Both the position numbers and the translations under genes were made by a program. Below are positions 2,360 through 62,765 of a stretch of DNA of 64,000 bases, in pieces (the stretch's first letter is position 1; the number at the start of each line of letters is the position of its first letter). The notes below the pieces were generated by a model that saw only the letters and a program-made list of their open reading frames with translations, did not search any database and had not been told where the DNA came from. The stretch lies in sequence record NC_031103.1. One strand, given 5' to 3'. The DNA comes from Escherichia phage vB_EcoM-UFV13.

Positions 2360-3643
2360 ATGGCTAAAATCAACGAACTTCTGCGCGAATCAACCACAAC
2401 GAATAGCAACTCAATCGGTCGCCCAAATCTCGTTGCTTTGACTCGCGCTACCACTAAATTAATATATTCTGACATTGTAGCAACGCAAAGAACTAATCAA
2501 CCTGTTGCTGCTTTTTACGGTATCAAATACCTTAACCCAGATAACGAATTTACGTTTAAAACTGGTGCTACTTACGCTGGCGAAGCTGGATATGTAGACC
2601 GAGAACAAATCACAGAATTAACAGAAGAGTCTAAATTAACACTCAATAAAGGCGATTTATTCAAATATAATAATATCGTTTATAAAGTATTAGAAGATAC
2701 TCCATTTGCTGATATTGAAGAAAGCGACTTAGAGTTAGCTCTTCAGATTGCAATCGTTCTTTTAAAGGTTCGTCTATTTTCTGACGCAGCGTCAACAAGC
2801 AAATTTGAAAGCTCTGATAGCGAAATTGCGGATGCTAGATTCCAGATTAATAAATGGCAAACCGCCGTTAAATCTCGTAAACTTAAAACTGGTATCACAG
2901 TTGAATTAGCACAAGATTTAGAAGCAAACGGATTCGACGCTCCTAATTTCCTGGAAGATTTGCTTGCAACTGAAATGGCAGATGAAATCAATAAAGATAT
3001 TCTACAGTCTTTGATTACAGTATCAAAACGTTATAAAGTTACAGGAATTACTGATACTGGATTCATTGATTTGAGTTATGCATCTGCTCCTGAAGCAGGT
3101 CGTTCATTATACCGAATGGTATGTGAAATGGTTTCACATATCCAAAAAGAATCAACTTATACAGCAACGTTCTGTGTTGCTTCAGCTCGTGCCGCTGCGA
3201 TTCTTGCTGCATCAGGTTGGTTAAAACATAAACCAGAAGATGACAAATATCTTTCACAAAATGCCTACGGGTTCTTAGCTAATGGTTTACCGCTTTATTG
3301 CGATACTAACAGCCCATTAGATTATGTAATCGTTGGTGTAGTAGAAAATATCGGTGAAAAAGAAATTGTTGGATCAATTTTCTATGCTCCGTATACAGAA
3401 GGTCTCGACTTAGATGACCCTGAACATGTAGGTGCATTTAAAGTTGTGGTTGATCCAGAAAGCTTACAACCGTCTATCGGTTTATTAGTTAGATATGCTT
3501 TATCAGCAAATCCTTATACCGTAGCAAAAGATGAAAAAGAAGCAAGAATAATTGACGGTGGAGACATGGATAAAATGGCAGGTCGTTCAGATTTGTCTGT
3601 TTTATTAGGTGTTAAGCTACCAAAAATTATTGTTGATGAATAA
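2360..3643 (+). CDS. 24: capsid vertex protein gp24
   Basis: 427 aa, gp23 paralogue, recognised T4 gp24; late promoter motif upstream. Confidence 0.95.
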   Translation: MAKINELLRESTTTNSNSIGRPNLVALTRATTKLIYSDIVATQRTNQPVAAFYGIKYLNPDNEFTFKTGATYAGEAGYVDREQITELTEESKLTLNKGDLFKYNNIVYKVLEDTPFADIEESDLELALQIAIVLLKVRLFSDAASTSKFESSDSEIADARFQINKWQTAVKSRKLKTGITVELAQDLEANGFDAPNFLEDLLATEMADEINKDILQSLITVSKRYKVTGITDTGFIDLSYASAPEAGRSLYRMVCEMVSHIQKESTYTATFCVASARAAAILAASGWLKHKPEDDKYLSQNAYGFLANGLPLYCDTNSPLDYVIVGVVENIGEKEIVGSIFYAPYTEGLDLDDPEHVGAFKVVVDPESLQPSIGLLVRYALSANPYTVAKDEKEARIIDGGDMDKMAGRSDLSVLLGVKLPKIIVDE

Positions 3644-3647
3644 AACA

Positions 3648-3672
3648 AAGGGACCTTTCGGTCCCTTTTTAT
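3648..3672. terminator. bidirectional hairpin terminator between gene 24 (+) and rnlB (-)
   Basis: GGGACC-TTTC-GGTCCC flanked by T-runs on both strands. Confidence 0.7.
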
Positions 3673-4677
3673 TTAACTTACCAATTCAATCCAAGCCGGA
3701 CGAAGTACATCTTGTACCATTTTAACTAATTCCTTTTTAATCAAAGAAGGATTATCCGCTTGAGTTAGAGTAATACCTTCACGAGAAGTTTCTTCCAAAA
3801 TATCTTGAACAGTTAGTCCCATCACCTTTCCAAAATCTTTAGGACCAATTTCGCCAATTTTAGAAATAACGTTATTTACTCGGTTCAGTGTAACGTAACA
3901 AGCTAAAATTCCCACCAATTTGTTATCAGCTTCTGATAGTTCAACTTTAGCTTTAATAGGCTTATCAGACTTTTTCTTTTCACTAAATTTGGAATTCTTG
4001 CATTTAATAGCTACACGATTGCGATTAGGCAGCCAAGAAGGATAACAAGGTTTCAATACATATCCTTCAGCGGTAAATACTTCGCCTTTAGCTTCGGCAT
4101 TCCAAACGCATTTATTTGCATCAACTAATCCAGCATGGTCTACTGTAAAATTATAATCTTGGACAACAGAATCTAAATCATTTGGCAATTTAATAAGCTC
4201 TTCAAATTTACCGCGGCCTAAAAGTGGAGCCATTTTAAATTTAAATGTATTACAGAATGATTCCATCATATAATCGTCGACATAAGTCACATCACCACTT
4301 TCTGTAGTGACAATAATGTCAAATACATAAAAATCTTTATCACCATAATCAACATTCTTCTGAATGCCAGGTCCAGCGAATTCGCCAAAGACTTGATAAG
4401 ATACAACCGCTGAGGTTTCCATAATATCTTGTACTGCTTTAATGGAATCAGCGTAATTCTTTAAAATAATTTCATACCCAAAGAAATCTTCAGCAGGAAG
4501 AATCGGTCCAGTACGTTTAGCGCAAGTTACTTTATCACGCTCAATAATCAATGAGAAATTTGTACCATGAATCTTTTCACGAGCTACCCACTCCCCACCA
4601 GTCAATCCCAAGCTGTAAAGTTTTTCAATAAATTTAGAGTTGTAATGATTTTCAAGACTGCTATACTTTTTAAACAT
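3673..4677 (-). CDS. rnlB: RNA ligase 2
   Basis: 334 aa; nucleotidyltransferase lysine motif KIHGTN near N-terminus; T4 Rnl2 length and position after gene 24. Confidence 0.93.
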
Positions 4678-5167: not shown

Positions 5168-5232
5168 GTTATCGAGTTAGTGCCATTATATACATCATTT
5201 TCTGATTGTGTTTTGTGTGCTTTCAAAATGAA

Positions 5233-5252
5233 GAAAGGGGCCGAAGCCCCTT
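5233..5252 (-). terminator. UUCG hairpin downstream of hoc
   Basis: Minus strand GGGGC-UUCG-GCCCC followed by TTTCTTCATTTTG. Confidence 0.6.
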
Positions 5253-5256
5253 ATGA

Positions 5257-6387
5257 TTATGGATAGGTATAGATGATACCAGTTTCTAAAGCAGTTTTAT
5301 GAATGATGTATCCATTACGTGATTCTTGAACATCAACTTCTGGATAGTCTTTCATCATCTTCTGAAGAGTGTAACGATGCAGGTAATATTTACTATCTGG
5401 ATCGTCAGTTTTCCAATCTTTACCTTCTTCAGTCATTTTTTGGATTTCATCCATAACCCACCAACCGCACCAGATGTAAGCTGAAGTACGATGTGGAAGA
5501 GGATGAACATAAGGTAATTCACCTTCTGGTTCTGGAGCAACTTTATCAGTTACCTGAACTTGACCTTCTGCTGTAATAGTTTTACTATCATAATCAGTAG
5601 CAGTAACAGTTGCAGTAACTTCAATAGTTTGACTTCCAATAGATGAGGTATCAACGGTATATACATTAGTTGACCCTTCTACAGGAGAAGAATCTTTCTT
5701 CCATGAATATTCAATTTGCGCTTCTTCTGGAGCATCCGTAACATTAGCCGTAAATGTAGCCGAAGCATCTTGCTGAACGTTAATAGAAGGAGGAGTCAAT
5801 GTAACCTGTGGATTCATTGTCTTCTTATTAACAGTCAGTGATACTTCATTAGAAGTAACTTCCTTTGCATCATAATCTGCCGCGGTTACTTGAGCTACAC
5901 ACTTGATTTTTTTAACTCCGCTTGTAGTAGGAGTGTAATTGAATGTAGCAGAAGTTGCTTCGCCCACAGGAGAACCGTCAACGTGCCATTGATACGTAGC
6001 AGATGCACCTGATGGCTGCGAAGCTAAAGCAGCAGTAAATTCAACTGGGGTTCCGATTACTCCAGCGGCGGGGCTATCAGGAGTTACAGCCAATGTAGTC
6101 GTCTGTGTCTTATTTTGAACTGTGATAGTTGTAGTAGCTTCTGCTGTTTCAGGTTCAGATTCTGCAACTTGATTGGTTGCAACTACTTTAATAGTCTTTT
6201 GACCGGCAGGTCCTTTTAGTACATAACTAAAAGTTGCTGACGTTTCTTCCTGTGGAGCATCGTCTACAGTCCAAGCATATGTAATAGGTCCATCTCCAGT
6301 TTGACCACTGGGTGTAGCAGTAAACTGCTTAGTTTCATCAATAACCCCTGTCGGTGTTTTAGGAGTTATATCAACTGTAAAAGCCAT
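5257..6387 (-). CDS. hoc: highly immunogenic outer capsid protein Hoc
   Basis: 376 aa, same as T4 Hoc; repeated Ig-like T/V-rich beta modules; UUCG hairpin downstream. Confidence 0.93.
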   Translation of the reverse strand: MAFTVDITPKTPTGVIDETKQFTATPSGQTGDGPITYAWTVDDAPQEETSATFSYVLKGPAGQKTIKVVATNQVAESEPETAEATTTITVQNKTQTTTLAVTPDSPAAGVIGTPVEFTAALASQPSGASATYQWHVDGSPVGEATSATFNYTPTTSGVKKIKCVAQVTAADYDAKEVTSNEVSLTVNKKTMNPQVTLTPPSINVQQDASATFTANVTDAPEEAQIEYSWKKDSSPVEGSTNVYTVDTSSIGSQTIEVTATVTATDYDSKTITAEGQVQVTDKVAPEPEGELPYVHPLPHRTSAYIWCGWWVMDEIQKMTEEGKDWKTDDPDSKYYLHRYTLQKMMKDYPEVDVQESRNGYIIHKTALETGIIYTYP

Positions 6388-57857: not shown

Positions 57858-58493
57858 TCACAGTTCAGATGCTACAGTGATTACAGCTTCAATGTTTTCT
57901 ACCGAACGTTTAATGTCAAGATACACATTACCGTTTTTAGCGATTTTACATGACATTCCGATGTCAGTAAATTTCTGAATATGATGTTCCATCATTTTGT
58001 ATCCAAAAATTCGCATGTTTCCATTGTTGTTAATTTCAAAATTGCGAATTCCGTGAGTGCGTTTTTCTAAAATAGCGAGATAGTTACTGCGATAAGTTTC
58101 GACCTTTTTAAGAACAAATCCATTTTCATCTAAAAGTTTTAACATGAGGTCTTTATCTTCTTCCATATCAGAAGTAATCTCACGAGCTTTACGAGTTGCT
58201 CGTTTTTTCAGCAGTTCAGGAGCATTTTCCTGTGCATATAAAGTTGCTGCATTTGAAATAATATCCTGAGCTTCACCAGTAATTATTAATCCATCACCAG
58301 ATTTCTCCACCAGGCCTTTTTTAATCAATACCCCAATATTACTATTAACTACTGCGTTACCTAAATCTGGATGCACCTCACGAACTTCTGCAGCTGTAAT
58401 GAAATCTTTCTTAGCAATAGTAATTAAAATCGCAGCAGTTTTTTCATTCAGAACATCGTTAGAAGCTTTGATGATGTAAGTTACTTTAGACAT
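57858..58493 (-). CDS. motA: middle transcription activator MotA
   Basis: 211 aa, recognised MotA sequence. Confidence 0.95.
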   Translation of the reverse strand: MSKVTYIIKASNDVLNEKTAAILITIAKKDFITAAEVREVHPDLGNAVVNSNIGVLIKKGLVEKSGDGLIITGEAQDIISNAATLYAQENAPELLKKRATRKAREITSDMEEDKDLMLKLLDENGFVLKKVETYRSNYLAILEKRTHGIRNFEINNNGNMRIFGYKMMEHHIQKFTDIGMSCKIAKNGNVYLDIKRSVENIEAVITVASEL

Positions 58494-58519: not shown

Positions 58520-58564
58520 GTAGTTGATAGTTGTATAGTACCACAGTATGCTTTGGTTGTAAAC
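58520..58564 (-). promoter_or_regulatory. early promoter-like sequence upstream of motA
   Basis: Minus strand GTTTAC, 17 nt, GGTACTATAC, shared downstream block ACAACTATCAACT. Confidence 0.6.
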
Positions 58565-58585: not shown

Positions 58586-58616
58586 AATAAAAAAGGGAGA
58601 GCCGAAGCTCTCCCTA
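58586..58616 (-). terminator. rho-independent terminator
   Basis: Minus strand GGGAGAGC-UUCG-GCUCUCCC followed by TTTTTTATTTT. Confidence 0.8.
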
Positions 58617-58619
58617 AAA

Positions 58620-58769
58620 TTACTGCATGACTGTGATAACTGTCATGATAACACGTTGAATTCCGAACGCAAGAAGACCTCCTGCTACGGCTGGAACAAC
58701 GCCTAAACCCGCCAGTAAAATGCTACCAGATACTAATGCAGCGCTTGTAATACCTATAAATGGACTCAT
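58620..58769 (-). CDS. small hydrophobic membrane peptide (not in ORF track)
   Basis: Hand-translated 49 aa MSPFIGITSAALVSGSILLAGLGVVPAVAGGLLAFGIQRVIMTVITVMQ; ATG overlaps gene 52 stop; rho-independent terminator follows. Confidence 0.55.
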   Translation of the reverse strand: MSPFIGITSAALVSGSILLAGLGVVPAVAGGLLAFGIQRVIMTVITVMQ

Positions 58770-60094
58770 TTGATTTCCTCTAAATCTTTGGTGTATTCGG
58801 TAACTACATCAGTAGTTTTCCAATATTCGTTTTCTTCTTTCTTAGCTTTAGCTTCTTCAGCAAGTTTCTTTGCTTCATCGGAAGTCATATGAAAAATATT
58901 CATTCCGACTAGTTTATCAACATAAGAAGAATACATATCAATTTTAGAAAGTTCTTCGGTCAGTTCTTTGCGAGTTTTACCCTGCACAACGATTTCACCT
59001 GAAATTACTTTCTTAATGAAATGCGCCTTGGCAAAGGCTAAACGAAAAGCTGATTCAGTTTCTTTGATTTTGTTATCAATTCGTTTTTGGACATAAGTTT
59101 TACGAACTTCAACGAAGTCTTTAATTAAATCGACTACGTTATCGTAAACTTGTAGCTTTCCTTTCTCATTAATAACGGTAATATTTTGGGAACGACGCTC
59201 AATCAACCCGAAGTCTTTCATAATTTTCGCGTGACGTTCTTCTTCATTATCGCTCAAAGCGTATTCTTTGCGGAATTTAACTTTAAAGCCAAAACCATGC
59301 TCACCGCAAGCATCATCCCATGTAATGAAGCCTTTATCTTCAAGTGGGTCTAAGATTTTACTCACATAAGTTTCACGATCATACTTATACGGAATCTCAG
59401 TGATATTCATTTGAGTTCGTGAAGTAAACTTATATGTTCCACGAATTTCATATTGTCCATCAATTTCAACGACTTCACCACGAAATTCTGGGAATTCTAC
59501 CTTCGGTTTAGTTACTTTCTTTCCTTGAAGAGCTTGCAGTACAGCTTTCTTAACAGAAGAAACACTATGAGGAAGAATGTAAGTTGCATAACCAGTTGCA
59601 ATACCGGAAACACCATTAAGAAGAACAGTAGGAATAATAGGCAAATAGAAAGCAGGAGGAATGTGTTCTTTATCTTGATGTACCGGAGCATATTCAGTAT
59701 CTTTATATACGTTATAGAAATTTTTACTTACACGAGCAAAAATATAACGACTTGCTGCTGCTTTTTGGACAGTACGAGAACCAAAGTTTCCTTGACCATC
59801 TAACAGAGGAAAGTTATTATTCCAAGTATTAGCCATCAAAGCACCTGCATCTTGTGCAGAGTTTTCGCCATGGTGATATCCAAGGTCCGCTACACCACCT
59901 GCAATAGAAGCGAGTTTGTGAAACTTATCTTTATTTCCTCGTGCCAAATCAAGAGCTCGAGCAATAACAAATCGTTGAACTGGCTTAAATCCGTCAATCA
60001 TATTTGGGATAGCACGATTTTCAACCGTGTACATAGCATAAGCCAATGCTTCATTATCAATGATACTTTTTAAATCGCGATTATTCAGTTGCAT
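58766..60094 (-). CDS. 52: DNA topoisomerase II medium subunit gp52
   Basis: 442 aa, same as T4 gp52. Confidence 0.95.
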   Translation of the reverse strand: MQLNNRDLKSIIDNEALAYAMYTVENRAIPNMIDGFKPVQRFVIARALDLARGNKDKFHKLASIAGGVADLGYHHGENSAQDAGALMANTWNNNFPLLDGQGNFGSRTVQKAAASRYIFARVSKNFYNVYKDTEYAPVHQDKEHIPPAFYLPIIPTVLLNGVSGIATGYATYILPHSVSSVKKAVLQALQGKKVTKPKVEFPEFRGEVVEIDGQYEIRGTYKFTSRTQMNITEIPYKYDRETYVSKILDPLEDKGFITWDDACGEHGFGFKVKFRKEYALSDNEEERHAKIMKDFGLIERRSQNITVINEKGKLQVYDNVVDLIKDFVEVRKTYVQKRIDNKIKETESAFRLAFAKAHFIKKVISGEIVVQGKTRKELTEELSKIDMYSSYVDKLVGMNIFHMTSDEAKKLAEEAKAKKEENEYWKTTDVVTEYTKDLEEIK

Positions 60095-60098
60095 AAAT

Positions 60099-60239
60099 TT
60101 ACCATACTAGTGAATGTAGTGCCATAATAACATCAGAAATGAAAAGCACGACTTGAATTAATCCGAACATTACTCCATAATATAGTGCTACCAATAAAGT
60201 AGCAAGGGCTAGTGAATAGCCCAAAATTTTCTTAATCAT
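60099..60239 (-). CDS. small hydrophobic membrane peptide (not in ORF track)
   Basis: Hand-translated 46 aa MIKKILGYSLALATLLVALYYGVMFGLIQVVLF... Confidence 0.45.
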   Translation of the reverse strand: MIKKILGYSLALATLLVALYYGVMFGLIQVVLFISDVIMALHSLVW

Positions 60240-60390
60240 TAGTAGATAACAACACAAATGTTAAATATGCACACATACCCTGGGCTAAAGCTTGTGAAAA
60301 CACACTGCTAGCATCGATACAGATAGTTAAAACACATGCTACTATCCAACAAATAAATGAAATAACTCCTAATAATTTTGCGATATTCAT
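60232..60390 (-). CDS. ac: small membrane protein, probable Ac (acridine sensitivity)
   Basis: Hand-translated 52 aa MNIAKLLGVISFICWIVACVLTICIDASS...; position between stp and 52 as in T4. Confidence 0.55.
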   Translation of the reverse strand: MNIAKLLGVISFICWIVACVLTICIDASSVFSQALAQGMCAYLTFVLLSTND

Positions 60391-60397
60391 ATTTTCC

Positions 60398-60478
60398 TCA
60401 CTGGCGTCCGAAGACGCCTTTAATTTTAAGATTATTACGATAGAACTGCATCACATGTTCGTTATGGAAATTACTCAT
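60398..60478 (-). CDS. stp: Stp peptide (modulator of host EcoprrI/PrrC system)
   Basis: Hand-translated 26 aa [26 protein letters not shown], one residue different from recalled T4 Stp; directly downstream of ndd. Confidence 0.8.
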
Positions 60479-60936
60479 TAATACGCCTGTAAAACAAATT
60501 TAAAGTTATCAGCCAACATACGGTTCATTTCTTCAAGTGTTTGATACTCAGAATGATGATTACGAGTAAATGCTAAAGCTAACTGTCCTTTTCCAAATCC
60601 CGTCGTCAGAGGTTTCATCTTAGAAGCAGGCAGATAAAATACTGTGTATACCATATTGTTATTTGCAATAGTACGTGCAAGCTGAGACCGACGTTGACGA
60701 ATATGACTTAGAACTGCACTGAATCCTTGCTTAGAACGCTGATTACCTACATAAAATCGTGCAGACACACATGGATTACTAAATGGACGACCATCTAATT
60801 TACTTACTAAAAAGTAAAATCCAGGTTTAGATAAAATATCTTTATGCGGAGTTCCCAAAAACCACTCACCACCCTTGATTGTACCAATAACAGTTGCGCC
60901 TGCATTGTTCAGATCAGTAACAGTCATATATTTCAT
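60478..60936 (-). CDS. ndd: nucleoid disruption protein Ndd
   Basis: 152 aa from ATG at 60936 with GAGGAAA Shine-Dalgarno. Confidence 0.85.
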
Positions 60937-60996
60937 ATTAATTTCCTCTAAATTATTTTCTACTCCAAGGCCGCATGAATACACACGGCCATTAAA

Positions 60997-61212
60997 TTAA
61001 TCGTCGCAGTCGACGCTCAATTCCCAAAACTCTTCTACAGTATAAGTTTCAGTATCATTTTCAATACAGAAACGTTCATTACTGTTATTTGCTAAAGTAG
61101 CATTAACTGTCGGTTTCTCGCTAGTGCTCTTAAGAGGTGAAATACGAATTAACTGATCACCGTTATCTAAACAGAAAATTTCACCAACTTTTACATCTTT
61201 AAAGATTTTCAT
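60997..61212 (-). CDS. hypothetical protein, ndd.1 position
   Basis: 71 aa ORF. Confidence 0.6.
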   Translation of the reverse strand: MKIFKDVKVGEIFCLDNGDQLIRISPLKSTSEKPTVNATLANNSNERFCIENDTETYTVEEFWELSVDCDD

Positions 61213-61327
61213 AATTCACCTCAAGGAGTATAAAATCCGAATGCAGTTGTTGACCATCCCATCCAATATGGGAAATTTGCACCAATGTAAAACATGAGAA
61301 TATAAAACCAACCGCTCAGCAAATTCA

Positions 61328-61546
61328 TCATTTTACACCATTCCAAATTGTTTCAACTACAGATTTTAAACCATTTTGATGAATATCAATTCCGACTACT
61401 GTCATCAAATAGATTCCAACTACAACTGAACCTAAGGCAAAAATCAGCATGAAAATGAATAAAGCCGGAAAAATATTATCGAAAAACCATTCAATAAATG
61501 TAAAAGCACTGCGTTTACGCTTCATATTTTCCTCACATAAATCCAA
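61328..61546 (-). CDS. small membrane protein
   Basis: 72 aa with two hydrophobic helices. Confidence 0.6.
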   Translation of the reverse strand: MDLCEENMKRKRSAFTFIEWFFDNIFPALFIFMLIFALGSVVVGIYLMTVVGIDIHQNGLKSVVETIWNGVK

Positions 61547-61646
61547 AGTAAACGTTTAATACATCAATCATTAAAACGATTGGGAATATACTCAAAACTA
61601 TTAGTATTATAACTACATTCCATATAGCTTTAACAATCTTTTTCAT
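61533..61646 (-). CDS. small membrane peptide (trimmed start)
   Basis: 37 aa MKKIVKAIWNVVIILIVLSIFPIVLMIDVL... with GGAGG Shine-Dalgarno; the 69-aa ORF-track version reads through the promoter. Confidence 0.55.
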   Translation of the reverse strand: MKKIVKAIWNVVIILIVLSIFPIVLMIDVLNVYFGFM

Positions 61647-61659
61647 TTTCTGTTCCTCC

Positions 61660-61704
61660 GTAGTTGATAGAGTAATAATACCACAGAGGAACAGTCTTGT
61701 AAAC
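61660..61704 (-). promoter_or_regulatory. early promoter-like sequence
   Basis: Minus strand GTTTAC, spacer, GGTATTATTAC. Confidence 0.5.
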
Positions 61705-61920
61705 AACTTTTTAAAAATATTCGTAATAAATGTGAATACCAACTACTACCGCTGAAACCTGTGCAACCCACCACGCACAAGCAATAAGTACAGAATTAAA
61801 AATTTTCATAATAACCTCATCACAAAAGTAAATGTTAAACAAATTACTGGAATACTAATTAACCAAACAAAACACCACCATAATGAACTCATAGTTCAAT
61901 CTCAACGATTTTCATTTTAC

Positions 61921-62127
61921 TCAATAATCCGCTAAAAGATCAACGATTGCATCACGAAGACACTTATTCGCAATACGTTTAAGAGCAATTTCAGTTTCTG
62001 GAGCATTTTGAATAATCATTGAATTCAATTCAGCCTCAGCAAACTGAAGTTCTTTAACTAATTCAGCTTTATATTTTCCTTGCCCTTTCTTAGCTTTTGC
62101 TCGTTTTAGTTCAGCTGTAGTAAACAT
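61921..62127 (-). CDS. hypothetical protein (trimmed start)
   Basis: 68 aa from ATG at 62127 with GGAGAA Shine-Dalgarno; the ORF-track N-terminus covers a promoter-like element. Confidence 0.55.
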   Translation of the reverse strand: MFTTAELKRAKAKKGQGKYKAELVKELQFAEAELNSMIIQNAPETEIALKRIANKCLRDAIVDLLADY

Positions 62128-62149
62128 TTCATTCTCCAAATCCGTATCA

Positions 62150-62191
62150 GTTGATAGTTGTATAGTACCACGGTCCTTGTGGTATGTAAAC
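62150..62191 (-). promoter_or_regulatory. early promoter-like sequence
   Basis: Minus strand GTTTAC, spacer, GGTACTATAC, shared downstream block. Confidence 0.5.
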
Positions 62192-62207
62192 CGTTTTGTG
62201 AAAATTT

Positions 62208-62765
62208 TTAAATGGAAAGATACCATCCATTGTAGTTGCTTTTTCTTACAACCTTACGAAGGTCTTCTCTATCACCGATGAACTTCGGAGTGTACTGGAT
62301 GACACCTGGATGAATTTCTTTAGTGTTGAATATAATTATACAGTCAGCGACTTGATGATTTAGAATGGGCCCTAGATTTATTCCAGAACCATATGGATAC
62401 TCTCCGCTGCATCCCGTTGTTACCGAAATCCAACGCGAGTCAGTTTGATGTGTCTTAACTTCTACACGGAGCCCACAATATTTTGGATGTGCCAAAACAT
62501 CCCATGCATATGTGTACGGATCATCGACATCTTCTTGGCCTTTATTGACATATCCGCTTAGCCAATCTGCCACAAAAAACTCTGCGTACACAGCGATACG
62601 GCATCTTTCGATAACTTCTGCCTTATCCTGATTTGGATTTTGTTTTAAAGAGTATCTTGCAGTATCAGCAATTTTGGCCTTCATTTCACTAGTCAAGTCA
62701 CTGTTAGATAGGGTAAATGACGGAATCTGAAATAGTCTCTGCAAACCCGGATTCGTTTTCTGCAT
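62208..62765 (-). CDS. denB: endonuclease IV
   Basis: 185 aa, T4 DenB length and position between ndd region and rIIB. Confidence 0.8.
   Translation of the reverse strand: MQKTNPGLQRLFQIPSFTLSNSDLTSEMKAKIADTARYSLKQNPNQDKAEVIERCRIAVYAEFFVADWLSGYVNKGQEDVDDPYTYAWDVLAHPKYCGLRVEVKTHQTDSRWISVTTGCSGEYPYGSGINLGPILNHQVADCIIIFNTKEIHPGVIQYTPKFIGDREDLRKVVRKSNYNGWYLSI

Follow-up and report, generated by a model that had tools for sequence, protein, structure and literature searches.

The 64,000-nucleotide stretch of Escherichia phage vB_EcoM-UFV13 analysed here (record NC_031103.1; the window, in what follows) carries, between positions 58620 and 61892, a run of very small open reading frames (ORFs), most of them coding for hydrophobic peptides. 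We found that this run is the block of T4-type early accessory genes that extends from denB to motA, that its members are motA.1, 52.1, ac, stp, ndd.2, ndd.2a, ndd.4, ndd.5 and ndd.6, and that they are genuine coding genes on which purifying selection acts. These genes were annotated long ago in other phages and the run is, in this respect, not a new finding. The explanation that best accounts for the whole of the data combines orthologous, real genes with an exchangeable palette of peptides proposed to act on targets in the host membrane, and we give it a probability of about 0.8; the specific mechanism proposed for the peptides is held much more tentatively and is discussed below together with its alternatives.

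The small genes and their T4 counterparts

The region between 58.5 and 62.8 kb of the window is gene-dense, and every gene in it lies on the minus strand. The original prediction, made from the letters of the window, had listed eight small ORFs here, and all eight pairs of coordinates correspond to ATG-to-stop frames on the minus strand, including a 32-codon frame at 61711..61809 that had been read but left unchecked: it is ndd.5, and its ATG overlaps the ndd.6 stop. The overlaps between stop and start codons are also as described, with three of the ATGA type (motA.1/gene 52, ndd.2/ndd.2a and ndd.5/ndd.6), one TAATG at stp/ndd, where the stp ATG lies in the ndd stop, and an 8-nucleotide overlap, ATGATTAA, between the 3' end of ac and the start of 52.1. 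The list, however, had missed a member of the run, the hydrophobic 65-residue ndd.2a (61328..61525), which is above the size range that had been considered.

The region matches 934 phage records, 485 of them over 80% or more of its length. Among public records the closest is RB14, with 97.5% identity, and T4 is less similar; for this reason we regard the window as a relative of T4 and not as T4 itself. Every small ORF is already named in the feature tables of RB14 and T4 and, to varying degrees, in those of PP01, RB3, ime09 and KIT03. A comparison of feature tables with the ORF map of the window showed that gene order and strand from denB to motA are the same in RB14, T4, PP01 and RB3; in the T4 (NC_000866) and RB14 genes, overlaps and lengths correspond as well. 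The peptides are 89–100% identical in amino acids, over 93–100% of each, to those of T4, RB14 and other close Tequatrovirus loci, and ten small products gave ten PHROG matches from end to end, with E-values from 1.6e-17 to 1.9e-38. With every ORF named in the RB14 and T4 records, and with the PHROG and Pfam matches, the observation re-finds annotated genes.

At the level of protein families, 52.1 is Pfam DUF7396 (PF24129; 81.9 bits against a cut-off of 27, positions 1–46 of 46), an entry carried by all 14 of its homologue clusters, and ndd.2a is DUF7248 (68.1 bits, cut-off 27, residues 6–63); the homologues of motA.1 carry, in precomputed assignments, the newer Pfam entry PF26886. The identification of the ORF at 60232..60390 as ac and of that at 60398..60478 as stp, already put forward in the original prediction, proved correct. 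In fact, Ac, whose gene lies between stp and 52.1, has an identity of 96% with T4 Ac and of 100% with RB14 Ac, and Stp matches the family Nuclease_act (PF08133; 71.8 bits, cut-off 25, model positions 1–26 of 26) and differs from T4 Stp at one residue (96% identity). In T4, ac belongs to one of three clusters of predicted membrane-protein genes, according to a passage of 10.1101/2025.06.30.662393 that cites Miller et al. 2003.

Ac has 52 residues in the window and 51 in T4, the extra one being a Thr, and this variant has been reported in some phages, such as PP01 (10.1101/2025.06.30.662393). The ndd.2a gene is intact in the window, with 65 codons, whereas in the T4 reference a 1-nucleotide deletion splits it into 'ndd.3' and a 40-residue 'ndd.2a'. 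In NC_000866, at 166432..166628, the two annotated pieces (26 and 40 residues) amount to one 65-residue gene with the deletion right after ATGAA; a frameshift artefact or a lesion of the laboratory strain probably accounts for the T4 'ndd.3'. As for ndd.4, the T4 annotation (166636..166764) has it start at MEEQK, with 42 residues, but the codon of the window at that place is ACG and falls inside a hairpin that is described below; the start kept across genera is the ATG at 61646, behind GGAGG, which gives 37 residues.

A further difference concerns the 68-residue ORF between ndd.6 and denB, which the window carries and no copy of which was found in the examined part of T4 or in 11 other close relatives. 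With a presence in only 8 of the 20 close loci, among them RB14 and RB3, where it is annotated, it behaves as a variable passenger gene. PP01 and F25 annotate it as 101 residues (61921..62226), from an upstream ATG that would overlap denB and the early promoter; the 68-residue form is more plausible. At the same site, RB14-type phages carry an additional inserted ORF of 87 residues.

Evidence that the ORFs are genes

Hydrophobicity was considered as evidence of coding and rejected: from 21 to 28% of the ATG ORFs of 26–70 residues in the window pass the same cut-off as the peptides of the run (Kyte-Doolittle, 17-residue maximum, 1.7), and this background shows that chance ORFs pass often in an AT-rich window. 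One example is a strongly hydrophobic ORF of 59 residues at 59512..59691 (minus strand), out of frame inside gene 52 and plainly spurious. What goes beyond chance is, instead, the tiling of the gaps between larger genes, the intactness of the frames, the coding-like substitutions and the motifs shared across genera.

Intactness, ratios of non-synonymous to synonymous divergence (dN/dS, pooled Nei-Gojobori) and site counts were obtained from 20 close Tequatrovirus loci, the window included. Start, frame and stop are kept in 20 of 20 loci for 52.1, ndd.4, ndd.5 and ndd.2 (seven ndd.2 genes start at the second Met), in 19 of 19 for motA.1 and ac, in 19 of 20 for ndd.6 and stp, and in 18 of 20 for ndd.2a. 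Frameshift or absence in close relatives, named in the original prediction as the outcome that would speak against these ORFs, is thus limited to occasional exceptions: the T4 reference and ELT1 have a broken ndd.2a (with an internal stop in ELT1), one contig has ndd.6 joined to a longer frame, and KIT03 carries another ORF in place of ac. The dN/dS values are listed in Table 1, together with those of the larger genes of the block, and lie between 0.09 and 0.21 for eight of the nine small ORFs. Moreover, across the hydrophobic ORFs the third codon positions hold 93 of the 157 variable sites (p = 3e-11).

Around ndd.4 the variation among the 20 loci is reduced. From 61440 to 61660, a segment comprising ndd.4 and the 5' part of ndd.2a, nucleotide diversity is about 0.015, compared with 0.03–0.09 on both sides, and the synonymous divergence of ndd.4 is only 0.02; a recent sweep, an exchange or an overlapping constraint are candidate causes.

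The depth of conservation was explored by iterated profiles run against all plus-strand ORFs of 55 loci. Outside Tequatrovirus, homologues were found for 52.1 in 23 loci, ndd.4 in 15, ndd.6 in 10, ndd.2a in 8, ndd.2 and ac in 6 each, stp in 5 and motA.1 in 4, and the loci include those of JS98, Enterobacter phage PG7, and relatives of Kosakonia phage 305 and of Klebsiella phages; for ndd.5 the same search gave no homologue outside the genus. By tblastn against all phage records, 52.1 was found in 811, ndd.4 in 594 and ndd.6 in 492, the last two at full length. The ndd.5 query returned no match in the phage collection, likely because of the low-complexity filter, and an unfiltered tblastn recovered it in 20 of the 20 close loci. 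The 52.1 family is confined to T4-like phages, with 14 clusters in a collection of 5.8 billion sequences and 9 representatives among 1.84 billion proteins; this deep search gave neither a bacterial homologue nor a hint of function, and all the matches were of 52.1 size or probable miscalls of the start.

In most comparisons between genera, ndd.4 included, synonymous sites are saturated or nearly so (proportion of synonymous differences, pS, about 0.5–0.85), and yet definite residues are kept. In 52.1, YYGV.F.L.QVVLFISD.I is invariant among the closest homologues and relaxes to yGv..g....vLF.s.Vi....sl.W over 27 sequences. The other conserved motifs are MSS..WC..W...IP.IC..F in ndd.6, KK..KAIWN...FP...DV in ndd.4, FY.G.N..YW.G in ndd.2, cW...T...sVfsQa..Qg in ac and, in ndd.2a, a C-terminal tail outside the membrane segment, GLKSvvet.WnG.

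Table 1. Genes and expression signals from denB to motA in the window, in reading order (aa, amino acids)
Feature	Position	Strand	dN/dS	Description
denB	62208..62765	-	0.03	first gene of the block
Early promoter	62162..62190	-		TTTACA-17-TACTAT with TG, ahead of the 68-aa ORF, ndd.6 and ndd.5; SA21RB early promoter at the equivalent place
68-aa ORF	61921..62127	-		soluble, RB32ORF266c type, not a membrane peptide; GGAG ribosome-binding site
ndd.6	61806..61892	-	0.21	28 aa, single hydrophobic helix; PHROG 8851, E 1.6e-17
ndd.5	61711..61809	-	0.11	32 aa, single hydrophobic helix, GAGG site; PHROG 5011, E 8.6e-26
Internal early promoter	61675..61703	-		TTTACA-17-TATTAT with TG, ahead of ndd.4; SA21RB promoter at the equivalent place
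Hairpin at the ndd.4 promoter	61650..61694	-		15 bp; -23.2 kcal/mol, z -4.9
ndd.4	61533..61646	-	about 1.0 (six variable sites only)	37 aa, Lys-rich N-terminus followed by one helix; PHROG 3098, E 2.9e-21
ndd.2a	61328..61525	-	0.09	65 aa, KRKR N-terminus and one long helix; Pfam DUF7248
ndd.2	61221..61331	-	0.12	36 aa, aromatic-rich, moderately hydrophobic; PHROG 4135, E 1.7e-24
ndd.1	60997..61212	-		71 aa, soluble, acidic; in the same transcription unit, not a membrane peptide
ndd	60478..60936	-	0.07	nucleoid disruption protein, 152 aa
stp	60398..60478	-	0.09	26 aa, soluble basic peptide; Pfam PF08133, PHROG 6763
Hairpin at the stp 3' end	60403..60418	-		GGCGUC-UUCG-GACGCC, directly before the ac ribosome-binding site; terminator in the SA21RB annotation
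ac	60232..60390	-	0.16	52 aa, two hydrophobic segments; PHROG 2501, E 3.7e-25, residues 1-51
52.1	60099..60239	-	0.17	46 aa, without a Shine-Dalgarno of its own; Pfam DUF7396
Gene 52	58766..60094	-	0.014	topoisomerase II medium subunit, between 52.1 and motA.1
motA.1	58620..58769	-	0.13	49 aa, glycine-rich, hydrophobic, GAGG site; PHROG 3487, E 2.2e-31
Intrinsic terminator	58594..58615	-		after motA.1; 9-bp stem, UUCG loop, U run; SA21RB terminator at the equivalent place
Early promoter of motA	58535..58563	-		preceded by TG; forms a PeSL-type element (see text) with the terminator just upstream
motA	57858..58493	-	0.027	last gene of the block

Expression signals and exchange of cassettes

As judged from its sequence signals, the block can be read as a single early unit that has two sigma-70-type promoters, at about 62.19 kb and, internally, at about 61.70 kb, and that stops at a strong terminator after motA.1; its early promoters and terminator are at the same places as in the SA21RB annotation. 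The T4 transcripts of all these genes are classed as early, and two of the larger products, Ndd and Ndd.1, the latter assigned to the early class, have been detected by mass spectrometry (PMC9697503, Table S2). A literature search found no ribosome-profiling study of T4, and a scan of the region with Rfam gave nothing above noise.

Ribosome-binding sites of the GAGG type precede motA.1, ac, ndd.2a, ndd.4 and ndd.5; those of 52.1, stp, ndd.2 and ndd.6 are weak or missing. Since 52.1, stp and ndd.2 start in or at the preceding stop, they may be translated by coupling to the gene before them. The hairpin at the 3' end of stp is not followed by a U run on the coding strand.

A different arrangement is found at the internal promoter, where the 5' arm of the hairpin lies between the -35 and -10 elements and the 3' arm is the ndd.4 Shine-Dalgarno itself. 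In RNA reading through from upstream the ribosome-binding site of ndd.4 would be masked, whereas RNA made from the gene's own promoter would lack the 5' arm. This architecture is kept in JS98-type and Kosakonia-305-type loci, in which the sequences of the arms differ by compensatory changes. We looked for a hairpin hiding the ribosome-binding site at all three early promoters and only that of ndd.4 has one; the idea of a general promoter hairpin was dropped, the other two being without it.

The layout of the block recalls the promoter-early stem-loop (PeSL) cassettes, which are reportedly ascribed also to Arbiol 2010. PeSL cassettes populate the hyperplastic regions of T4-like phages (Comeau, Arbiol and Krisch 2014, PMC4122927), and in a published example of their shuffling T4 and Yersinia phage PST have exchanged ndd.4/.5 (Fig. 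6A of the same work). Their promoter consensus in PST and T4, TTTACW-N17-TAYWAT (PMC4122927), is fitted by three minus-strand promoters of the window (at 62190, 61703 and 58563), each with a preceding TG, and the stem-loop at 58594..58615 directly precedes the motA promoter, as in a PeSL. By contrast, the ndd.4 stem-loop is not upstream of its promoter but straddles the -10 and pairs with the ribosome-binding site, and no strong stem-loop was found at the promoter at 62.19 kb.

Gene content between these elements varies among close relatives, as expected of PeSL cassettes: besides the 68-residue ORF, present in 8 of 20 loci, there are the extra ORFs of 87 residues (RB14 type) and 57 residues (ime09 type), the latter a membrane ORF added after ndd, and the replacement of ac in KIT03. 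In this last phage the ac slot is taken by an unrelated membrane ORF of 53 residues, of the 'VFIELI' type of JS98 (locus coordinates 2530..2691), and in vB_SsoM_113 the same slot holds two tandem ac paralogues (2742..2897 and 2908..3066 in locus coordinates). The slot between stp and 52.1 in JS98 (locus coordinates 3653..4363) contains an ORF of the ac type, one of the 'VFIELI' type and a 57-residue membrane ORF that is also found in ime09-type phages. A comparable situation occurs at the other side of gene 52: of 34 distant T4-like loci, 15 or more have a small membrane ORF that starts on its stop codon (ATGA). These ORFs, of 22–77 residues, belong to at least five unrelated sequence types, the position being kept and the sequence not; examples, in locus coordinates, are 5826..5930 in JS98 and 5808..5957, 5820..5891 and 5200..5433 in three other distant loci. 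The block behaves, in conclusion, as an exchangeable palette, in which slots keep a small membrane ORF while the sequence family changes, in line with PeSL exchange.

A comparison with JS98, in which 52.1 is at locus coordinates 4356..4496, is instructive in this regard. The 52.1 and stp products are 91–96% identical and gp52 only 81%, and pS is 0.39 for 52.1 and 0.55 for stp against 0.70 for gp52; the lower values suggest that the 52.1/stp segment was recently exchanged between genera. We dropped the proposal that 52.1 is more constrained than gp52, the high identity to JS98 being in part, as the low pS indicates, the product of recent exchange.

Membrane character and possible host targets

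Seven of the peptides have one or two clearly membrane-type helices. By Kyte-Doolittle analysis, ndd.4, ndd.5, ndd.6 and ndd.2a have one membrane-length segment each, and motA.1, 52.1 and ac have 32–46 hydrophobic residues, corresponding to a long helix or a helical hairpin and not to a minimal single span. The AlphaFold2 model of 52.1, a single helix of 44 residues with a predicted local distance difference test score (pLDDT) of 96, is compatible with one span or with a hairpin. The ndd.2 peptide is borderline, with a maximum of 1.41 against the cut-off of 1.7, and neither Stp, which is soluble, nor ndd.1 has a membrane segment. The original prediction, in which the peptides were mostly single transmembrane helices, holds for ndd.4, ndd.5 and ndd.6, but motA.1, 52.1 and ac are longer, ndd.2 is borderline and Stp does not belong to the group.

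Known phenotypes in the run are those of Ac (acridine sensitivity) and Stp (activation of PrrC) only. T4 Stp activates the host lysyl-tRNA anticodon nuclease PrrC (note to the T4 record, NC_000866). Loss of Ac in T4 leads to acriflavine resistance, and its expression from a plasmid sensitises E. coli to acriflavine and ampicillin, an effect that the substitution G38R abolishes; interference with AcrAB-TolC has been proposed, and a PP01 stock carrying Ac with the Thr insertion, as in the window, remained susceptible to acriflavine (10.1101/2025.06.30.662393). Information on the block as a whole comes from the T4 deletion sa-delta-9, which removes 52.1, ac, stp, ndd, ndd.1–ndd.6 and denB: the phage is viable, with about 50% of the wild-type yield, and the phage-induced stimulation of phospholipid synthesis is lost (PMC6071114). 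Of the function classes anticipated in the original prediction, transport sensitivity and defence modulation are represented by Ac and Stp, both already documented, but superinfection exclusion found no family match, and for motA.1, 52.1, ndd.2, ndd.2a, ndd.4, ndd.5 and ndd.6 nothing emerged in favour of any of the three classes; that interpretation is, overall, partly supported.

We propose that each hydrophobic peptide would insert into the inner membrane within minutes of infection, where its conserved residues (polar, aromatic, Pro or Cys) would hold it to a single, specific protein of the host envelope, which would be switched off or re-tuned by the binding. Candidate targets may be found among efflux pumps, transporters, enzymes of lipid synthesis and defence effectors bound to the membrane, and the action of Ac on acridine efflux or permeability would be the only worked case. 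Specific contacts, as opposed to bulk damage, are suggested by the conserved residues, by the tail of ndd.2a and by the loss of the Ac effect upon one substitution. That every one of the hydrophobic peptides inserts into the inner membrane and has a specific envelope target is a proposal to which we give slightly less than even odds.

The proposal has a parallel in AcrZ, a 49-residue partner of the AcrB efflux pump. The likeness is one of working principle, that is, a peptide of some 30–50 residues with one or two helices that alters a large membrane machine, a principle put forward for Ac and AcrAB-TolC in 10.1101/2025.06.30.662393; the peptides of the window have no sequence relationship with regulators of this type, are encoded by a phage and are early, and Ac would inhibit the pump and not tune it.

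Several observations weigh against this interpretation, some of them touching the genes and others the proposed targets. The dN/dS of ndd.4 is about 1.0, a value obtained from six variable sites only, and ndd.6 and 52.1, taken singly, have no significant excess of third-position changes, so that their support is carried by the cross-genus homologues. In T4 shotgun proteomics the small products are given as 'NA', not detected (PMC9697503, Table S2); peptides so short and hydrophobic offer few tryptic sites and would be expected to escape detection, but the result is, nonetheless, an absence of proof. Since ndd.2a is broken in the T4 laboratory strain, it must be dispensable there. The connection of Ac with AcrAB-TolC comes from a preprint and was drawn from phenotype and predicted fold, not from binding (10.1101/2025.06.30.662393). 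Finally, searches of Pfam and NCBIfam revealed no homology to a characterised small membrane regulator, toxin or exclusion protein: in Pfam, motA.1, ac, ndd.2, ndd.4, ndd.5 and ndd.6 had no match of the toxin, holin or AcrZ type at E-values up to 5, and 52.1 and ndd.2a matched only their own DUF families at up to 0.01; in NCBIfam, the hydrophobic peptides had no match at up to 0.01. Among the results listed by a literature search by gene name there was no phage paper on ndd.2a, ndd.4, ndd.5 or ndd.6, and motA.1 was mentioned in one phage genome paper.

Among the alternatives, the one that survives best, although we consider it unlikely, is that certain of the peptides serve in superinfection exclusion or block injection, as Imm and Sp of T4 do; placed in the envelope, they would keep out the DNA of phages that arrive later. 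Imm and Sp are early, small, envelope-located, non-essential accessory proteins from the same type of phage; early expression, small size and inner-membrane location of the window peptides fit this general pattern, and a variable gene content is expected in phage-phage conflict. However, T4 exclusion maps to imm and sp, elsewhere in the genome, and Imm and Sp have no homology to the peptides of the window. Moreover, none of ten peptides matches a PHROG or Pfam family annotated as exclusion, and no exclusion phenotype is ascribed to the region in 10.1101/2025.06.30.662393 or PMC6071114.

A little less probable is a non-specific perturbation of the membrane, of the type I toxin or holin kind, by which the host membrane would be depolarised or made permeable during shut-off, the acridine effect being then a matter of general permeability. 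Short hydrophobic helices made early could act in this way, expression of Ac sensitises to ampicillin as well, and older work attributed the ac effect to altered permeability, according to a citation in 10.1101/2025.06.30.662393. Conservation at polar, Pro, Cys and aromatic residues and in the non-membrane tail of ndd.2a argues instead for specific contacts, as does the fact that G38R alone abolishes the Ac effect, and no toxin or holin family was matched even at E-values up to 5; furthermore, an early loss of membrane potential would presumably harm a phage that needs the energy of its host for about 25 minutes.

Still more doubtful, in our opinion, is that 52.1 and the peptide of the motA.1 slot, coupled in translation to gene 52 on its two sides, tether or regulate topoisomerase or the replisome at the inner membrane together with the gene 52 product. 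The argument is one of position: all 20 close loci and 23 of 35 distant ones have a 52.1-family ORF immediately before gene 52, and in 15 or more of 34 distant loci a small membrane ORF overlaps its stop, despite the changing family. It would be in keeping with this idea that 52.1 has the invariant, polar-containing motif QVVLFISD and that acridine-resistance mutations are known also in the topoisomerase genes 39 and 60, as mentioned in the introduction of 10.1101/2025.06.30.662393. On the other hand, sa-delta-9, which lacks 52.1, is still viable; many distant loci are without one or both flanking peptides, and adjacency is common in packed genomes. The identity of 52.1 to that of JS98, accompanied by a low pS (0.39 against 0.70 for gp52), points to recent exchange and not to extra constraint.

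Finally, a chance origin of the small ORFs, as frames that happen to be open in AT-rich spacers and are hydrophobic by base composition, is very improbable: the background rate of hydrophobic ORFs with the spurious frame inside gene 52, the undetected T4 products and the dN/dS near 1 of ndd.4 would agree with it, but starts and stops are kept in 18–20 of 20 relatives, dN/dS is low in eight of nine ORFs, with the excess at third positions, homologues in other genera share residues despite near-saturated synonymous sites, five genes have GAGG sites, and ac and stp have genetic proof in T4.

Specific action on host membrane proteins remains the interpretation that we prefer for the hydrophobic peptides. 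A stronger form of it can be envisaged, in which the block is a cassette-shuffled battery of sequence-specific inhibitors of the host inner membrane, one of the ndd.x or 52.1 peptides is behind the loss of phosphatidylglycerol stimulation in sa-delta-9, and the peptides flanking gene 52 serve topoisomerase II or the replisome as a connection with the membrane; in its entirety, this picture is a speculative one and unlikely to hold.

As a discovery the run has no value: annotations of its ORFs exist for T4, RB14 and hundreds of relatives, and reviews have dealt with the cluster. What it offers is a defined set of eight conserved phage membrane microproteins, of which Ac alone has a phenotype, and comparative data that are useful for the assignment of their functions, namely conservation across genera, invariant residues, conserved starts and the ndd.3/ndd.2a break of T4. 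If the battery of inhibitors were real, a list of 'hypothetical membrane proteins' that is 20 years old would become a collection of natural probes for envelope proteins.

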